From assembly GCA_963675755.2 (NCBI GenBank), contig CAXXMD010000002.1, positions 864,001 through 928,000 on the forward strand: a DNA stretch of 64,000 nt, in the 5' to 3' direction. Shown here one piece after another: positions 1-42,833 of this stretch (position 1 is its first letter; each line of letters starts with the position of its first letter). The stretch is from a bacterium (GTDB taxonomy: Bacteria; Zhuqueibacterota; Zhuqueibacteria; Residuimicrobiales; Krinioviventaceae). Under the pieces are notes generated by a model. It made no database searches, had not been told where the DNA came from, and saw nothing but the letters and a program-made list of their open reading frames with translations. Position numbers and translations under genes: made by a program.

Positions 1-1660
1 ATGATGCACCACTGATGGAAGCATTCCCTTCTCCTGTAAAATTACCAACCCACACTCCAATTGTCCATTGTTTATTTACACCAATGGCCCATCCATCTTT
101 TTGACCATAGCTTGTACCAGTCTTCCAGGCAACGGGTACCTGGTTATTAAACCGCTGCCAGTAATATTCTGAACCGGGACGTTGAAGATATTTAAGCGTT
201 TCAAGAATCTGCCAGGCACTGCCCTTGCTATAGAGCTGTAGATCGTTTTCAGATATTCGTGTTTCTTTATACGTTACCGGTACATGTAAACCCAAATTAC
301 CCAATTCAACATATAATTGCAGCAACTCCCACAAACTGGCTTCAGCTCCCCCCAAAATTAGAGATAACCCATATCCATCTGGAGATCTGAACAAATGTTT
401 AAAGCCAGCTTGTTGTAAAAAATAATAAAAATCATTTATGCCATATTGATTCAATAAACGTACTGCCGGAACATTCAAAGACTTTACAAGCATCTCTTCG
501 ATTGTAACCAATCCTTGAAAAGTTTTGGTTGCATTTTGTGGGGCAAATGTACCATAAAAAGTGGGTACATCTTTTAAAACAGATTGGATTGTAAAAGGAC
601 CCCGATCCAGCACATTTGCAGCCAGAAAGGGTTTGAGTAAACTACCCGTTGAACGGGATGAATTTACACCATCAACCTGTCCCTGGTTATCATTATCAAA
701 AAAATCATGAGAACCCACATACGCTCTGACTTTGCCAGTTCCTGTTTCGGCAATCAAAAGTGCTGCATTTTTAATACCCATAGAGGATAACCAATTATAA
801 TTGGCATCCATCATTTGTTCTGCAATAGCTTGTACATCCAAATCCAACGTTGTATGGATTAGATCCTGAGTAGATTCATTCTGTTTTACAAATTCAGTAA
901 AATGGGGTGCTAAAAAAGGCAGTTTTTTTGTACCGGAAGGTAAAGGTTCATCACAAGCTATCAAATAATCCGTCTTATCAATAATATCATTATTGAACAA
1001 TTTCAAGAGCAATGTATTGCGTTTTTGTAAAAGTTGCTCTCTCCCCTTTTCCAGATTTAATAAACCGGGAGAATTGGGCAATACAACAAAAAGTGCTGCT
1101 TCTGCCCAGGTTAATTCAGAAATCGGTTTATTGTAATAACAATAGGATGCGGCTGAAATACCCACAATATTGCTACCCATGGGTACATGTGCGGCATAAT
1201 ACTTTAAAATTTCTTTTTTGGAAACATGAACCGTATAACGGAATGCCTGTGCACACTCCAAGAGTTTATTAAGTATAGTCCTTTGTTTGGGCTCTGCAAG
1301 TCTTGCAACCTGCATGGTTATTGTACTGCCACCCCGTTTGACCTCGCCAGCCTTAATATTCACAACAGTAGCATTCAGAATTGCTTTAACATCAAAACCT
1401 GGATGTCTGTAAAAGCGTTTATCCTCAAATAGTATCAAAGATTTAACATATTTATCAGGAAGGACCATCTCTTCCATAGGGAAACGGTACTGCTCATCAC
1501 TGCTCAGAAAAGCACGTATTAACCGACTATCCTGATCAAAAACCAGCGTTGAATAATCACAATGAAAGATATGTACAGGCCTGTATATCCAAATCAGATA
1601 AATCAAAACAAGAATAAATACAGGCCCATAAATATATAAATACTTTTTAGAAAAAGTCAT
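1..1660 (-). CDS. pbpC: Penicillin-binding protein 1C (transglycosylase/transpeptidase), 3' end runs off the window
   Basis: Not in the ORF track because it is truncated. Manual translation from ATG 1660: MTFSKKYLYIYGPVFILV...FEDKRFYRHPGFD...RGGSTITMQVARL (GT51 motifs), later RSTGSLLKPF and AWKTGTSYG (transpeptidase SxxK and KTG). Abuts the alpha-2-macroglobulin stop, the usual yfhM-pbpC pairing. Confidence 0.93.
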   Translation of the reverse strand, partial: MTFSKKYLYIYGPVFILVLIYLIWIYRPVHIFHCDYSTLVFDQDSRLIRAFLSSDEQYRFPMEEMVLPDKYVKSLILFEDKRFYRHPGFDVKAILNATVVNIKAGEVKRGGSTITMQVARLAEPKQRTILNKLLECAQAFRYTVHVSKKEILKYYAAHVPMGSNIVGISAASYCYYNKPISELTWAEAALFVVLPNSPGLLNLEKGREQLLQKRNTLLLKLFNNDIIDKTDYLIACDEPLPSGTKKLPFLAPHFTEFVKQNESTQDLIHTTLDLDVQAIAEQMMDANYNWLSSMGIKNAALLIAETGTGKVRAYVGSHDFFDNDNQGQVDGVNSSRSTGSLLKPFLAANVLDRGPFTIQSVLKDVPTFYGTFAPQNATKTFQGLVTIEEMLVKSLNVPAVRLLNQYGINDFYYFLQQAGFKHLFRSPDGYGLSLILGGAEASLWELLQLYVELGNLGLHVPVTYKETRISENDLQLYSKGSAWQILETLKYLQRPGSEYYWQRFNNQVPVAWKTGTSYGQKDGWAIGVNKQWTIGVWVGNFTGEGNASISGAS

Positions 1661-36699: not shown

Positions 36700-39573
36700 C
36701 TACTTAACCACTGCGATTTTTATAAACTGAACTGATGTATCACTAGAGCCGCTGGCTTCAATTCGTGCCAAATATGCTCCACTTTGTACATTACTAACAT
36801 CCCAACGGACCTCATGATCACCGGGTGTTGTGCCGCTTCCGGTTAATTCTTCTACAAATTCTCCGGCAATATCATAAATACGTATACTGACAGCACTTAC
36901 CGACTGGTTCAATCGGTAACGTATATTACTGAATCCACCATCAGCCGGGTTAGGATAACAATACGTTCCCTTTTCAGACAAAACCTTTGTAGATTGTGTC
37001 AACTGATGAGTGTCACCTGCAACACTGAAAGAATTTTGATTATTTCCACCATAACTGGTCCAGTTCTTGTCAGATGCCAACGTTATATCAAGATCAAAAA
37101 GATAAAAATATCCATCCGTTGAAATCACTCCACATTCCTGTTTTCCATCACCATCCATATCAACCAGGATTGGAGATACATGTACAGCACTGCCAACAGA
37201 CAGAGGAAAGCCTTCTACCATATCACCATTTGAATCATGCGCAGTTAACTGGCCTCCCAGTGTTGCGTTAATTACAATTGCACCATATTCATTTGTAACA
37301 GCAATCAATGGACTTGTCTTTTCTCCAATCAAATTATCACTTGTTAAATGAGCAGGAAAATTGGAAACAGGAGAATTTTCATAATTATATCCACGAATGT
37401 CAGATTGATATTGTCTGAACAGTTCAGGCAAACCGTCATTATCCATATCACCAACAGCAGGAAGTGTTGAAGCAAACATGGGTTCTGCACCTAAATTTCC
37501 ATCAAAATCTGCCAAAGCCAGAAAATTGGTTTGATTTGTGGTAGAGATATTTTTCGAATCCAGAATTTCAAGTGATGGTGATAATTTAAAATATTCACCA
37601 GTTTCGCTGATTATAGCAATTACATTTGATTGGTATGCCAAGCCGGTAATTGCGTTTGAACATATTGTTTTGCGGTCTATCACAGAATAATTGGGTGCAT
37701 CTACAATTACCAATTCACCATTAACAGTGCCTACAATTATGACTGTCAAGTTGGATAAAATTAGTGGGCCAGCAGTTATTTTAGATTGTATATCAATAAC
37801 CGTGTCGACTTTAGCAAAATTCTCGCCAACCCGAATTAAATATAATTTACCACTTTGACCGGCTAAAACCATCCTGTTTTGGTTGGTTCTGGTCGGTGGA
37901 AAAACTGCAGGAGGTAAAGAAAACGTATCATCAATATTTAAAACAAGATTTTCTTCTGTGTAGAATTCACCGTTTATATCCCAGCTAAACAATCTCCCAT
38001 CAACTGACAATGCAACTAGATAATTATTATTGTTAAAACCTACAGTTTTCAACGAACCGTTAAAAAATTCAGTACCTACATTTCTTGGAAATCCATCAAC
38101 CAGTCTGTCATTTTTGACAGAAAAAGTCATAACCGTATCATTATCACTAATGTTAAAAATATGAATATGACTTTTAGAACCATCATTTGCATTGCTGTTT
38201 GGAATGGTATAGGGAGACAAAGCTACTGTGTCAGTTTGATTATTGACATATTTATGAGATTCATTATCTGCCCAATAGGGATCATAATAGTCACCGGATT
38301 CTGCTCCCGAAGCAGCAGAAAATAGATCATAATAATAACCCAAATCCTGTGCACCATCACTTTCAACCAGATCAACACCGCGATGTTCACGGTCGTTATT
38401 GATACTATTGGTAGCAAGACTATCATTGATAATATTTTCATCAATATGCCAGATCAACAAGCCTGAACCGGGTAATCCAAAATCATATTCATCAATGCTT
38501 GTAATGACACCCAACTCACTATCAGCAGTTACATTGGCTTGAGTGTCAAATTGGGCTCTGTTTCCATTTTCATCACGGCCAAATGTCACTTCATCTTTAA
38601 CAGGATCTGTTTGGCGGTTTTCAACAAGAAAATATTCGGTAGAAGAAATTGGAATTTTATAGATATGAGGTGCAGAAGCTGTAGTTGTTGTGCCAATTTT
38701 CAAATCCGTACCATGTGTTACAACTACAGGTTCTTCCCATCCAAGATAAACTTTCATCCAGGCACATGGGTATGCGGGAATCAAGCCCTGCATATTATAT
38801 GAACCCTGATCCATCAGTCCCCAGCGGCCAATACCTGCGGAACCATCCAGCGTATTAAACATACTGGGCATACCCAGTTTGCTACCCATGAGCAGGGTCA
38901 TTGTTCCCAAAAGACCCAGTTCATAGCCTTCCTGACTTTGAGCTTCCGGTAAGATTATTCCTTCTTTAATAAAGATACCATCGCCAACATCAATCCCCTG
39001 ATAAGTGGTGTTACCCTCACCTAAAGTAGATTGCAAGGTTTCAAAGTCAAGATAAACTGACTGAATGTCATAGGGAGTTGCGTCAAAGTCAAAAGCAAAA
39101 TCACTACCAATACCAGCATGAAAAATTATAACACCATCATACTTGGAAAAGTCAGGATTATCATTTTCTATTGCCAAATTTATTACATCATAAAGTAATT
39201 CAGACCAGCGTTTATTTTTAAGCTCATCATTTTCCTGACCACTATAATAAACCATATTTTCAGACAATGTATATACTTCATTTTCACCTTCGGGTAATAC
39301 ATCCGCTTCAATTACAAGCTGATTATTAGATATTCTTGCAAAATAGTTCTTTAAAGCCAGCATCTGGTGTTGAAAATATGTACGATTATGGGGTGGTTTA
39401 TCTATGTTAAATTCACTTTCATTACCAAGATCAAACAATCCGTCACCTGTGGTAGTAGCAAGCTGATCTTGCTCAAACTGCGCACGTAATACCAGATAGT
39501 TGAGATTGCCCGACTGAGCAAATAGTAACGGAGTCAGAAATAAAAATAAAAACAATATGCTTCTTTTATACAT
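36700..39573 (-). CDS. M6 (InhA)-like domain + FG-GAP repeats + T9SS/FlgD-type C-terminal domain protein
   Basis: IIFHAGIG, GRWGLMDQG, WMKVYLGW, EYFLVENRQ, GLLIWHID (M6 fold); GDMDNDG and DMDGDG FG-GAP repeats; CYPNP...IYDIAGE...SGAYLARI...KIAVVK CTD. HExxH is absent. Confidence 0.8.
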   Translation of the reverse strand: MYKRSILFLFLFLTPLLFAQSGNLNYLVLRAQFEQDQLATTTGDGLFDLGNESEFNIDKPPHNRTYFQHQMLALKNYFARISNNQLVIEADVLPEGENEVYTLSENMVYYSGQENDELKNKRWSELLYDVINLAIENDNPDFSKYDGVIIFHAGIGSDFAFDFDATPYDIQSVYLDFETLQSTLGEGNTTYQGIDVGDGIFIKEGIILPEAQSQEGYELGLLGTMTLLMGSKLGMPSMFNTLDGSAGIGRWGLMDQGSYNMQGLIPAYPCAWMKVYLGWEEPVVVTHGTDLKIGTTTTASAPHIYKIPISSTEYFLVENRQTDPVKDEVTFGRDENGNRAQFDTQANVTADSELGVITSIDEYDFGLPGSGLLIWHIDENIINDSLATNSINNDREHRGVDLVESDGAQDLGYYYDLFSAASGAESGDYYDPYWADNESHKYVNNQTDTVALSPYTIPNSNANDGSKSHIHIFNISDNDTVMTFSVKNDRLVDGFPRNVGTEFFNGSLKTVGFNNNNYLVALSVDGRLFSWDINGEFYTEENLVLNIDDTFSLPPAVFPPTRTNQNRMVLAGQSGKLYLIRVGENFAKVDTVIDIQSKITAGPLILSNLTVIIVGTVNGELVIVDAPNYSVIDRKTICSNAITGLAYQSNVIAIISETGEYFKLSPSLEILDSKNISTTNQTNFLALADFDGNLGAEPMFASTLPAVGDMDNDGLPELFRQYQSDIRGYNYENSPVSNFPAHLTSDNLIGEKTSPLIAVTNEYGAIVINATLGGQLTAHDSNGDMVEGFPLSVGSAVHVSPILVDMDGDGKQECGVISTDGYFYLFDLDITLASDKNWTSYGGNNQNSFSVAGDTHQLTQSTKVLSEKGTYCYPNPADGGFSNIRYRLNQSVSAVSIRIYDIAGEFVEELTGSGTTPGDHEVRWDVSNVQSGAYLARIEASGSSDTSVQFIKIAVVK

Positions 39574-39666: not shown

Positions 39667-40767
39667 TTAGAATACAAATGATAATGAAAAACGCATTGTA
39701 TTAGAAAGTGGGTGCCCCTCACTTGCAGCTACATAACCGAAATCAAAACGATACATATTGTACTGGATACCAGCACCAAAAGAAGTAAATTTTACTTTAC
39801 CAGGTTCATCCCAATAGTAACCGGCACGTAAAGCAATAAGATCGCCATACCAGTATTCAAGACCTGTACTCAAAATCCCATTGAAAATTGTGGATTCACC
39901 AACAAGTTCTTCTTTTTCATCATCACCCAGGTTTTCATATTCTTTTTCTACAACTGTCCAGGGTGAAGTAAATAAAGCTTTATACCACGCATCAGAAGTA
40001 CCATCAGCATTACGTTTAACCATCATATGGTTCATATCACCAACCCAGGTCAGTTTATTGAATTCATCATCGATGAATTTGTAGGCAAAACCGACTTTTA
40101 AATTGGTTGGCAATGGATCAGCTTGGGCAGCATCGATATAGGTAATTTTGGGACCCATATTGGAAAGATTGGCACCAAAGCTCAATTTACGATGGAATGG
40201 GATTTTGTAAATGGTAGACAAGTCAAATGAAAAAGCATTTGCTTTACCATCACCTTGTTCTGCACCAGCACCAACACTGGAAAGATTTGAGCGGATATAA
40301 CGCAAACCAACACCAACTGCCCAATCCTGATTCAACTTTGTACCATAGGTAGTAGAAATAGCAAATTCGTAACTGCTAAATGTACCCAATGGATCAGGAC
40401 CTGATTCATCAGTAATGGTTTGTTCACCAAGGTTCAAATAAGTTACATTTACACCAAATGAACCCAATCCTTCAACTGAATGACGATAAGCGGCAAAATC
40501 ATAATAAAGATCTGAACCAAATTGAGGCAGCCAATTAGCATGCATCAAGGTTAATTCACGTCCTTCAAGAAATCCTAATCCTGCAGGATTCCAGAAAACC
40601 GCTGTAGCATCATCAGCTAATGCAACAAAGGCTTCACCCATACCAGCAGCTCTGGCTCCGGGAGAAATCTGCAAAAACAACACTGCGGCTTCACTCACTG
40701 CATAAACCTGGCTGGAAGAAAACAGCACTGTTGAGATTGTAATTAAAGATAAAATCAGCTTTTTCAT
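39667..40767 (-). CDS. porV: PorV/PorQ family outer-membrane barrel (T9SS shuttle-like, FadL fold)
   Basis: FLQISPGARAAGMGEA, DATAVFWNPAGL, NMGPKITY...PLPTNLKVG, ALRAGY, HPLSNTMRFSL. AGGAGG RBS. Confidence 0.85.
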   Translation of the reverse strand: MKKLILSLITISTVLFSSSQVYAVSEAAVLFLQISPGARAAGMGEAFVALADDATAVFWNPAGLGFLEGRELTLMHANWLPQFGSDLYYDFAAYRHSVEGLGSFGVNVTYLNLGEQTITDESGPDPLGTFSSYEFAISTTYGTKLNQDWAVGVGLRYIRSNLSSVGAGAEQGDGKANAFSFDLSTIYKIPFHRKLSFGANLSNMGPKITYIDAAQADPLPTNLKVGFAYKFIDDEFNKLTWVGDMNHMMVKRNADGTSDAWYKALFTSPWTVVEKEYENLGDDEKEELVGESTIFNGILSTGLEYWYGDLIALRAGYYWDEPGKVKFTSFGAGIQYNMYRFDFGYVAASEGHPLSNTMRFSLSFVF

Positions 40768-40795
40768 CAGAGTATACCTCCTGTTATCACATAGT

Positions 40796-40856
40796 AAAAA
40801 AAAATCCGAACCTAAAAGAGTTGCTCCCTAAAGAAGTTACCCTTTTACATCCGGAT
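40796..40856 (-). terminator. Intrinsic terminator in the porV leader
   Basis: RNA AUCCGGA-UG-UAAAAGGGU-AA-CUUCU-UUA-GGGAG-CA-ACUCUUUUA-GG-UUCGGAU followed by U8; ends about 14 nt before the porV RBS. Confidence 0.8.
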
Positions 40857-40996
40857 AATATATTCCACGGGCAAGCTTCATAGTTCGCAAACAGGTTTAA
40901 ATAATAAAGAATTAAAGTTATTTCAAATACCAATCAGTTAATTTAATTAAACCTATAACGAACTTTAATAAGCTTACTCCTTGTTTGTGATTAAAT
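40796..40996 (-). ncRNA. Candidate structured cis-regulatory leader (riboswitch/attenuator-like) or sRNA
   Basis: Hairpin of about 110 nt (40869-40980) with G-U pairs only on the minus strand, an alternative antiterminator helix, a terminator and an upstream promoter. No family recognised. Confidence 0.55.
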
Positions 40997-41002
40997 CTAA
41001 TA

Positions 41003-41031
41003 AAATTACGAATATAAAGCTATAGAGTCAA
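41003..41031 (-). promoter_or_regulatory. Putative sigma70 promoter for the porV leader
   Basis: Minus strand TTGACT-17 nt-TAATTT. Confidence 0.5.
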
Positions 41032-41091
41032 GCAGTTTTTGATCAAAATGAAACTGCATTACTCTGTACCTACCGTAATTTAACAAATTAC

Positions 41092-42441
41092 TTACTGCAA
41101 AAGTTCCTTAATTGCGGAACAAAATTTATCCATTTCCTGTTTTGTGCGTTTTTCTGTAACCGCTACCAGTAATGTATTGTCCATATTACCAAAATACTGT
41201 TTTAACTCAATACCGGCCAGAAAACCTTTTTTACTCAACAACTCAATATACTCACTAACAGGTTTATTAGAGTTGACGCGAATCACAAATTCCTTAAAAA
41301 AAGGACGATCAAAAACAGGTTCAATACCAGGAATTTCGCACATTTTTTCAAATAAATAATGGCTTTTTTGCAAACACAATTCAGCAATTTTAGGTAATCC
41401 ATTTTTACCCATCAAAGCCATATAAATGGTTGCAGCCAAAGCTACCAGGCCCTGATTGGTACAAATATTGGATGTTGCCTTTTCTCGTCTAATATGCTGC
41501 TCGCGGGTTTGCAATGTCAAAACAAAACCGCTCTTGTTGTTTTTATCAACGGTTTGCCCTACAATGCGACCGGGCATCAATCTAACAAGACTTTGTTTTA
41601 CGGCAAAAAGTCCTAAATATGGACCGCCAAAATTAAGGGCATTTCCTAACGCCTGTCCTTCTCCAGTAGCAATATCCGCACCATAACTTGCCGGTGGTTC
41701 AAGAATTGCAAGCGAAATAGGATCATTTGAAGTTACAAATAATGCACCTGCCTGGTGTGTAATATCAGACAATTCCTGCATTTCTTCCAGACTGCCGAAA
41801 AAATTGGGATGCTGCACAATAACTGCTGCAACCTGGTCATTAATCTGGCTTTTCAAGGCTGCTATATCGGTTATTCCGTTCTCCACAGGTACAAGGTCTA
41901 CATTAATACCTCTACCATGAGCATACGTTTTAACAATATCTACATAATTGGGATTCAATGCACCAGATAATAAAACCGTATTCCGTTTTGTATATCCTGT
42001 TGAAAGCAGCATTGCTTCTGCCAAAGCTGAACCACCATCATACACGGATGCATTTGCCACATCCATACCGGTTAACTCACAGATCATAGTCTGGAATTCA
42101 TATATAGTCTGTAACGTTCCCTGACTTACTTCGGGTTGATACGGAGTATATGCAGTATAAAATTCCGAGCGTGACAAGAGATGTTTTACAACAGAAGGTA
42201 CATAATGATCATATGCGCCTCCACCCAAAAAGCAAACATTTTCAAGACAATTACTATTCATCGATGACAGTTCAGACATGTGTTTCATGATCTCAAACTC
42301 GGATAAAGCTTCAGGCAGATTCAACTCACCTTTGAACTGTAATGCTTCTGGTATATTGTCTATTAATTCCGAAAAAGAGTCTACACCAATGCTTTCTAGC
42401 ATTTCTTTTTTATCTGATTTCGTATTCGGAATAAAACCCAT
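41092..42441 (-). CDS. gcvPA: Glycine dehydrogenase subunit 1
   Basis: FLGGGAYDH, YTAYTPYQPEVSQG, TREQHIRREKATSNICTNQ. Confidence 0.96.
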   Translation of the reverse strand: MGFIPNTKSDKKEMLESIGVDSFSELIDNIPEALQFKGELNLPEALSEFEIMKHMSELSSMNSNCLENVCFLGGGAYDHYVPSVVKHLLSRSEFYTAYTPYQPEVSQGTLQTIYEFQTMICELTGMDVANASVYDGGSALAEAMLLSTGYTKRNTVLLSGALNPNYVDIVKTYAHGRGINVDLVPVENGITDIAALKSQINDQVAAVIVQHPNFFGSLEEMQELSDITHQAGALFVTSNDPISLAILEPPASYGADIATGEGQALGNALNFGGPYLGLFAVKQSLVRLMPGRIVGQTVDKNNKSGFVLTLQTREQHIRREKATSNICTNQGLVALAATIYMALMGKNGLPKIAELCLQKSHYLFEKMCEIPGIEPVFDRPFFKEFVIRVNSNKPVSEYIELLSKKGFLAGIELKQYFGNMDNTLLVAVTEKRTKQEMDKFCSAIKELLQ

Positions 42442-42455
42442 AAGTAGCCTCTAAT

Positions 42456-42833
42456 TTAACTTATAACGTTTTTATAATCTTCTGCGCTTAACAGATTGTC
42501 TAATTGACTGGCATCAGACAATTCAATTTTAATCATCCAACCTTCACCATAAGGATCTTTATTTACAGTTTCAGGTGCGTCTGTTAAAACATCATTAATT
42601 TCTGTAACCTTACCTGAAAGGGGTGCAAAAAGATCAGAAACTGCTTTAACAGCTTCAACGGTACCAAAAGCATCCATTTGGTTAACTTCTGTACCAACTT
42701 CTGGTAACTCTACAAAAACCAGGTCACCCAATTCACCCTGTGCATAGTCAGTGATACCAACAGTGGCAATATTGCCATCTACCGATACCCATTCATGTTC
42801 TTCAGTGTACTTAAATTCAGCCGGAATCTGCAT
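42456..42833 (-). CDS. gcvH: Glycine cleavage system H protein
   Basis: [28 protein letters not shown] lipoyl-Lys motif. Confidence 0.96.

Follow-up and report, generated by a model that had tools for sequence, protein, structure and literature searches.

What occupies the spacer between gcvPA and porV on the minus strand of a 64,000-nt stretch of bacterial DNA (contig CAXXMD010000002.1, positions 864,001 to 928,000; this whole stretch is called the window), and does it control porV? The spacer is 324 nt long and holds a leader of about 190 nt. The original prediction, made from the letters of this DNA, described a promoter, a terminator and a mutually exclusive antiterminator on the porV strand, recognised no known aptamer, and proposed a ligand- or protein-responsive OFF switch for an operon resembling those of the type IX secretion system (T9SS). 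Here we report that the leader with its alternative helices is genuine, conserved and absent from Rfam. The reading as a ligand-sensing riboswitch was not supported. We favor, with a probability of about 0.6, a reading in which the leader is an uncatalogued cis-acting transcription attenuator, OFF by default, which precedes porV throughout the candidate phylum KSB1. The parts of the leader and its target gene are located in the window as follows.

41026..41031, minus strand: -35-like hexamer TTGACT, read from the sequence and conserved in leaders
41003..41008, minus strand: -10-like hexamer TAATTT, 17-nt spacer to TTGACT; its support is conservation
40869..40980, minus strand: sensor hairpin or anti-antiterminator, 112 nt, from minimum free energy (MFE) folds and covariation; variable apex
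40977..40980, minus strand: GGAG resembling a Shine-Dalgarno sequence, at the foot of the 5' arm of the sensor hairpin; G at 74-93% in its columns
40943..40969, minus strand: speculative mini-open reading frame AUU AAA GUU CGU UAU AGG UUU AAU UAA
40869..40879, minus strand: switch strand B, the 3' arm of helix P1, GAAG-C-UUGCCC, which can pair with strand C instead
40804..40856, minus strand: predicted intrinsic terminator hairpin, 53 nt, base CCGGAU/GUUCGG; family consensus CCGAAUG/CAUUCGG
40833..40842, minus strand: strand C in the terminator 5' arm, GGGUAACUUC; the B:C helix is the antiterminator
40796..40803, minus strand: U8 tract of the terminator, directly after the hairpin
40782-77, minus strand: AGGAGG Shine-Dalgarno sequence of porV, 13 nt past the end of U8
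39667..40767, minus strand: porV, the gene under putative control

Each element of the predicted layout was recovered at its minus-strand position, base for base. In the sensor hairpin helix P1 consists of GGAGUAAGCUU and AAGCUUGCCC, helix P2 of AGUUCGUUAUAGGUUUAA and UUAAACCUGUUUGCGAACU. The outer pairing joins GUAAGCUU (40977-70) with AAGCUUGC (40878-71), the middle pairing AGUUCG (40964-59) with CGAACU (40887-82) and the inner pairing AUAGGUUUAA (40956-47) with UUAAACCUGU (40900-891). The 53-nt hairpin and its U8 tract combine a stable stem with a run of U and are predicted to work as an intrinsic terminator. The MFE fold of 40768-41000 (minus strand, 233 nt) reproduced both hairpins at -68.3 kcal/mol; equally stable structures were absent among 200 shuffles (z = -6.42). 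Individually, the sensor hairpin was calculated at -29.0, the terminator at -25.2 and the antiterminator fragment, computed with the outer helix of the original prediction, at -13.1 kcal/mol. The claimed strand-specificity was borne out, as a covariance model of the leader scored 108.1 bits on the porV strand versus 20.8 bits on the opposite strand. A simple sigma-70 consensus scan of the region listed neither the leader promoter nor the leader terminator, and promoter-like matches in the region were at chance level (14 found versus 11.5 expected). In the window alone neither the promoter nor the alternative pairing exceeds chance; their support is comparative. A small protein gene was also looked for in the spacer; there were only short frames with weak or non-canonical starts, which run through the variable apex.

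Is the leader conserved? A DNA search of relatives matched two blocks in other genera, one over the promoter and one over the 5' hairpin arm, with identities of 84-91%. PorV orthologues are present in 40 of the 43 genomes of the order. The leader was found in all 37 upstream regions of porV orthologues with enough sequence; one more porV locus of the order, cut 59 nt upstream, was not judged. It is always co-oriented with the controlled gene, and within the order 23-77 nt separate it from the start codon. In the 37 aligned leaders the terminator hairpin is followed by a run of 6-10 T, in three of them after one or two other bases. No leader was present upstream of a 45%-identical PorV paralogue. 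The upstream gene is gcvPA in only part of the genomes of the order; as the upstream gene varies and the leader stays, the leader travels with porV.

A covariance model, R1, was then built from the 37 leaders (190 positions, 37 pairs). It matched 41/43 genomes of the order, 78/125 of the class and 97/151 sampled across the phylum. When loci were fetched by PorV similarity, the leader was detected in 32 of 44 at PorV identities of at least 49% and in 0 of 36 at 40% or less (Eisenbacteria, Krumholzibacteriia, Fibrobacteraceae, Elusimicrobiota and others), although a leader that goes undetected in a diverged or incomplete genome may still be present.

The promoter was inspected in those leaders with at least 70 nt of upstream sequence (n = 70). 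In 58 of them there is a TTGnnn-16..18-TAnnnT pair whose end lies 8-59 nt ahead of GGAG. The spacer is 17 nt in nearly all leaders, and outside the order the promoter is mostly TTGACA-17-TATATT. Several of the leaders lacking a TTG-type promoter bear a GGAACTT motif instead. The promoter is conserved upstream of the leader even in genomes in which gcvPA is not the preceding gene. This supports a conserved promoter that belongs to the leader and is independent of gcvPA; in the window transcription would start near 40996.

Other promoter-like motifs were noticed in the vicinity. In the window, an ECF (extracytoplasmic function)-sigma-like motif of the sigma-E type, GGAACTT-17nt-TTAAA, lies at 41079-41107 (minus strand) over the last gcvPA codons. 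A GGAACTTTTG...GTTnAA motif is located upstream of leaders without TTGACA-type promoter (L026, L029, L032, L038, L040, L046) and also at the gcvPA 3' end in other genera. In one family of the order TGGTAYG-N4-TTGT, which resembles a sigma-54 -24/-12 promoter, is situated about 100-130 nt upstream of the leader and upstream of its TTGC-type promoter (L022, L023, L028, L030, L031, L033, L034, L037, L042-L045). Just past the gcvPA stop codon of the window, at 41018-41071 (minus strand), is a hairpin with 21-nt arms that are 81% complementary. Its 3' arm includes the -35 hexamer of the leader, and in a same-genus relative it is more poorly paired. It may be a gcvPA terminator or a promoter-occluding structure.

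Next, we asked whether the helices covary. In a plain MAFFT alignment 79.2% of cells can pair in P1, P2 and the terminator as drawn by hand, versus 31-49% with slid partners, and covariation was 0.236 versus at most 0.123 for slid structures, a value reached by none of 500 shuffles. In 54 model-aligned leaders 81.3% of cells pair versus at most 50.5%, with 23 compensatory pairs, a number not reached in 500 shuffles. The 28 leaders from outside the order, which were not used in building the model, gave 82.0% versus at most 52.2% and 20 compensatory pairs. Terminator base pairs are kept in 95% and 90% of cells in the 54 and 28 leaders, respectively. The CC/GG pairs of the lower terminator stem are invariant (54/54 and 28/28 leaders) and show no covariation. 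This essentially invariant stem, CCGAA/UUCGG, reads CCGGA/UUCGG in the window (40851-40855 with 40806-40810); the stem of a plain terminator should covary freely. The UUCG/CGAA tetramers of the terminator stem also form the base of P2.

The alternative pairing of GAAG-C-UUGCCC with GGGUAACUUC had been predicted at exactly these coordinates, and it is kept across relatives: in the MAFFT alignment (A1) the B:C antiterminator pairs in 74.9% of cells versus 39-54% in slid controls. An alignment-free test was carried out in addition, in which the duplex energy of each strand B was computed against every terminator 5' half. The mean was -10.1 kcal/mol for cognate and -7.4 kcal/mol for non-cognate duplexes, and the cognate partner ranked at a median of 6.5 of 54. 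Outside the order the values were -12.5 versus -9.95 kcal/mol with a median rank of 4 of 28. The complementary solutions differ by lineage. Examples are GGCUCACC/GGUGAG, GCUUCUU/AAGAAGC, GCUCUCCAU/AUGGUAGAGC, CCUUUGAGC/GCUCAAGG and GCUCACUUG/CAAGUGAGC. Leaders from outside the order often lack P1, and here the P2 3' strand CCUUUAAnC pairs with GnUUAAAGG in the terminator 5' arm. There, too, matched changes are seen, UUUGAGC/GCUCAAGG versus UUUAAGC/GCUUAAAG. A mutually exclusive, covarying helix on the terminator 5' strand is therefore part of the family, weak or absent in a few lineages. By these comparative data the competing antiterminator helix is real and co-evolves with its partner strand.

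Leaders of other classes of the phylum (L197-L216) have an extra conserved helix above P2, GGUGGAU ... AUCCAUC, which is not in the leaders of this order. The ancestral sensor may have been larger than that of this order.

In which state is the leader by default? Folding of full-length RNAs placed the terminator in the MFE structure of 52/54 leaders. A switch at equilibrium was considered and dropped, as a 5'-strand block removed the terminator in just 4 of 54 full-length RNAs. Energies of the default state were computed on transcripts cut ahead of the terminator 3' arm. Here the closed P1/P2 state had an advantage over the antiterminator that averaged 9.2 kcal/mol and amounted to 7.0 kcal/mol for the window's own leader. 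With the 5' arm blocked, at least five pairs between the freed strand and the terminator 5' half were formed in 45 of the 54 leaders. As the closed state is favored without a ligand, the leader looks default-OFF and would be turned ON when its 5' strand is captured.

The distribution of conserved bases is asymmetric. The 5' strands of P1 and P2 contain 1.21 and 1.41 bits of information versus 0.77 and 0.84 bits in their partners; the terminator arms are equally conserved (1.43 and 1.53 bits). The internal loop that separates P1 from P2 is variable; within the order, so are the length and the sequence of the apex. Classes that lack the P1 3' arm still conserve GGAG-N3-4-GCCUAUA, though it is unpaired. 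Such a pattern, with more conservation in the 5' strand than in its partner and with a 5' strand that is kept where it is unpaired, is the reverse of that of an aptamer and suggests recognition of the 5' strand itself. A YYUAU motif is found in 66/75 leaders. GGAG sits 5-9 nt (7 nt in 45/66) ahead of a conserved AUH triplet, the third base of which is A in 43, U in 12 and C in 11 leaders and never G; AUG, GUG or UUG do not occur at this triplet in any of the 66 motif-bearing leaders. A four-codon frame, AUH NNN NUU CGN stop, is present in 48 of 75 leaders. No run of a regulatory codon, as would be expected of a leader peptide, was seen, and the second codon is freely variable. That porV itself uses AGGAGG indicates that these bacteria employ Shine-Dalgarno pairing. 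Together, the modeled energies and the conservation of the 5' strand point to capture of this strand by a macromolecule as the most likely class of trigger; a small-molecule aptamer would fit less well.

From these elements we infer how termination and its relief might proceed. RNA polymerase would initiate near 40996, at the promoter that belongs to the leader. Within roughly its first 35 nt the RNA would expose a conserved single-stranded motif, in which GGAG is followed after 3-4 nt by GCYUAU and after about 4 nt more by UUCGUUAnAG, and which then turns into the 5' strand of the long P1/P2 hairpin. By default P1/P2 would close and lock its 3' strand, the CCGAAUG...CAUUCGG hairpin with its U tract would form, and RNA polymerase would halt 29 nt ahead of the porV start codon. 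If a trans-acting macromolecule held the 5' strand during transcription, the freed 3' strand could pair with the terminator 5' strand, in this window GAAGCUUGCCC with GGGUAACUUC. With the antiterminator formed, transcription would continue into porV and the M6-like gene behind it. The macromolecule might be a 30S subunit or a ribosome that loads on GGAG-7nt-AUH; an RNA-binding protein is equally possible as captor of the 5' strand.

Several results speak against such a default-OFF attenuator. Although the 5' strand was blocked, the terminator persisted at equilibrium in 46/54 full-length leaders, so the switch must be kinetic and act during transcription. In this window, shuffling the antiterminator fragment does not lower its stability (z = 0.03), and the window's cognate duplex ranks 23/54 (the extraction dropped the first G of the helix). 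Lineages with a weak antiterminator rank 51/54 (L016, L017, L019) and 35-38 (L039, L040). Model-fitted alignments favor the structure of the model, and sequences of relatives cannot be counted as independent; of the alignments, MAFFT gives the conservative estimate. In its ribosome version the proposal needs initiation at AUA, AUU or AUC; variants with indels that bear YYUAU mostly lose the short frame, and 9/75 leaders are without the motif. A candidate binding protein was not identified. What of other explanations? One is that the hairpins merely stop gcvPA read-through, that the porV promoter is unrelated and that the alternative pairing is a product of chance. The chance-level stability of the antiterminator fragment in this window is in line with this, as is a promoter-like TTTACT-16-TATACT at 40798-40771 in the consensus scan. 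Yet TTTACT/TATACT is not conserved in relatives whereas the promoter before the leader is (58/70), gcvPA has a separate hairpin at 41018-41071, and the leader is conserved where the upstream gene is not gcvPA and recurs as a family in 97/151 sampled genomes of the phylum. The comparative data thus contradict this explanation, and we regard it as highly improbable.

An element without regulation, i.e. a constitutive partial terminator which dampens a strong promoter or a stand-alone small RNA (sRNA) of about 190 nt beside porV, deserves more attention. It would agree with an own promoter combined with a strong terminator, with the closed terminating fold favored in computation and with the fact that no trigger was identified; the invariant CCGAA/UUCGG stem even hints at a function of the terminated RNA itself. 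However, a co-evolving antiterminator is useless to a constitutive terminator or an sRNA. Moreover, the element is always directly upstream of, and co-oriented with, a few surface genes, within the order 23-77 nt from their starts, and the linker, which would be the seed of an sRNA, is not conserved. Thus, an unregulated element appears unlikely. The metabolite or ion riboswitch of the original prediction, in which P1/P2 would be the aptamer and a ligand, perhaps a nucleotide sugar or another envelope or glycan precursor, would stabilize P1 and switch OFF, fares no better. A phylum-wide family with the succession anti-antiterminator, antiterminator and terminator, no Rfam match, and several unlinked operons with a shared theme (T9SS attachment, sugar dehydrogenase and export) is a typical riboswitch pattern. 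But the P1-P2 loop and the apex are variable in sequence and a conserved multi-helix junction, as in an aptamer, is missing; the bases conserved best belong to the 5' strand inside helices; whole classes have the other parts of the leader but no P1; and since the terminating fold is about 9 kcal/mol more stable without ligand, a P1-stabilizing ligand would add little. We consider a riboswitch quite unlikely.

Is the leader a known RNA? The original prediction had recognised no known aptamer, and no Rfam family matched. In Rfam 15, cmscan of window positions 40500-41400 (E up to 10) yielded three chance-level matches far under the gathering scores, and with seven diverse homologous loci there were 0 matches (E up to 1). 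A known RNA family was ruled out by the absence of Rfam matches, and a repeat or mobile element, i.e. of the repetitive extragenic palindrome or miniature inverted-repeat transposable element type, by the leader being single-copy in the 6.48-Mb genome according to DNA search and covariance model. The latter found one copy at 108 bits, with the next matches at E of at least 0.77. Features of T-box, ANTAR, RAT or TRAP-like elements were not seen by eye in the alignments and had no Rfam match; a dedicated motif search was not made. A literature search for porV with riboswitch returned nothing relevant by title or abstract. Judged from listings, publications on riboswitches, structured RNAs or RNA motifs had no link to KSB1, and those on antiterminators, attenuators, leader RNAs or riboswitches none to type IX secretion. 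The stretch was present in 5 sequencing runs of 2 studies, all contigs; no RNA run was among these. All three checks by which the original prediction could have failed turned out in its favor: there was no Rfam match, conservation and covariation were clear, and the promoter ahead of the leader was conserved also where gcvPA is absent. Based on the comparative sequence data we consider the leader as a putative new attenuator-type RNA family which is phylum-wide in KSB1 and is predicted to control T9SS attachment genes.

The architecture of the porV leader is that of a classical three- or four-segment attenuator. In the amino-acid operon attenuators trpL, hisL and pheL (Rfam Trp_leader, His_leader, Phe_leader) segments pair 1:2, 2:3 and 3:4. 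Similarly, the porV leader has four segments, of which 3:4 with the U tract is the terminator, and its segment 1 has a Shine-Dalgarno-like GGAG and a putative short frame; occupation of segment 1 would free segment 2 for the antiterminator. In contrast, its frame starts with AUA, AUU or AUC and never with AUG (66/66 motif-bearing leaders), usually has four codons without a regulatory codon run and is mostly lost across indels. Its targets are secretion and surface genes, not biosynthetic ones, and the Rfam models of these leaders had no cmscan match. In the pyr leader of Bacillus the PyrR protein stabilizes a weak anti-antiterminator, which results in termination. Three alternative helices, a sequence-specific 5' element and several operons of one regulon are common to both. 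In the porV leader, however, the anti-antiterminator is already the most stable fold, a factor would have to prevent it, and the Rfam PyrR model was unmatched.

OFF riboswitch platforms of Firmicutes such as SAM-I, FMN and TPP use the 3' strand of the closing helix for competition between P1 and the antiterminator. The porV leader likewise shares the 3' strand of P1 with an antiterminator that overlaps the terminator. It differs in that a conserved pocket or junction is missing, some classes do without P1 and the OFF fold needs no stabilization. As far as can be read from the sequences, the leader lacks the aptamer of a riboswitch as well as the regulatory codons of a leader peptide, and its short frame has no canonical start codon. 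The EAR RNA of Bacillus eps and the ops/JUMPstart-RfaH, LoaP and UpxY leaders render RNA polymerase terminator-resistant and need no competing helix. They, too, are conserved leader elements before envelope, polysaccharide or secretion operons and decide on terminator passage. Unlike these, the porV leader keeps a co-evolving antiterminator helix, and EAR was unmatched in Rfam. In Porphyromonas gingivalis the T9SS is controlled at transcription initiation by the two-component system PorX/PorY and the ECF sigma factor SigP. The por targets are shared, and some leaders have an ECF-like GGAACTT upstream; the difference is that between protein control of initiation and an RNA leader at porV. To our knowledge, T9SS control has been described for no more than a few cultured Bacteroidota, in which it acts through protein regulators alone.

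Which genes follow the leader? The putative target operon is T9SS-like: the porV product matched Pfam PorV (4e-32) and the NCBIfam PorV/PorQ family (310 bits, cut-off 90), and the second gene of the operon has a T9SS sorting tail. The product of this second gene, with 957 residues, scored 548.8 bits against NF052323, slightly below the cut-off of 600, and also matched Por_Secre_tail. PorV is followed by an M6-like homologue in class-level and phylum-level loci, too. The next gene codes for 1000 residues with PD40/TolB-like and peptidase-MA-like regions. Directly after gcvPA comes the porV leader, not gcvPB. The neighboring genes are the following.

42456-42833, minus strand: gcvH, upstream of gcvPA
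41092-42441, minus strand: gcvPA, directly precedes the spacer
36700..39573, minus strand: operon gene 2, T9SS-dependent M6-like inactivated metalloprotease of 957 residues with T9SS sorting tail

In its own genome porV alone bears the leader. No leader was found, with filters off, before two tandem PorU genes or PorU-like loci (best 13.1 bits, E = 0.24). The tandem PorU sortase genes are full-length (884 and 877 bits, C3:1311408-1318919). In the same genome at least 21 paralogues of the PorV/PorQ family exceed the family cut-off, so that together with PorU its set of T9SS outer-membrane genes is unusually large.

Extra copies of the leader exist in relatives, and the genes behind them form a coherent set. 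One family of the order has second and third copies, situated before the PorU sortase (NF033707 5e-84, Peptidase_C25 5e-86) and before an operon that encodes a lipoprotein, a 480-residue BNR protein bearing a tail of the T9SS type and a PorV/PorQ-like protein. Another class has second copies ahead of a gene for a nucleotide-sugar dehydrogenase (TIGR03026, 3e-128), behind which lies one for a Wza-like polysaccharide export protein. Among metagenome contigs 80 loci were fetched with a 16-base pattern; 22 were confirmed by the model and 58 dropped as chance matches. The genes downstream of the 22 were porV in 12, the dehydrogenase in 3, the lipoprotein operon in 2 and a PorU-like gene in 1; in 4/22 no downstream open reading frame passed the filter, and two pairs look like duplicates.

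These associations invite a broader proposal, namely a phylum-wide RNA regulon of porV, porU, PorZ/PorQ-like genes and a surface-glycan operon that is run by a new class of sensor. We put it forward tentatively and with considerable doubt. In its boldest version it would be a ribosome-occupancy switch, in which a strong Shine-Dalgarno sequence, an obligatorily weak start that is never AUG and a four-codon frame gate a terminator. Alternatively, a dedicated T9SS RNA-binding regulator might recognize GGAG-GCCUAUA-UUCGUUAAAG.

In this uncultured phylum the leader links porV and porU to PorZ/PorQ-like genes and to a nucleotide-sugar/polysaccharide-export operon, which provides a ready definition of a regulon. 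With about 190 nt it is compact and can be tested in vitro without culturing the organism, and the covariance model can be used to annotate genomes of KSB1 as well as metagenomes. A new type of input would be added to the classical attenuator design should the trigger turn out to be a new RNA-binding protein or a ribosome that loads on a non-AUG mini-frame. A ribosome-occupancy switch, if true, would tie the output of the surface-attachment machinery to translational capacity or to the status of initiation factors.

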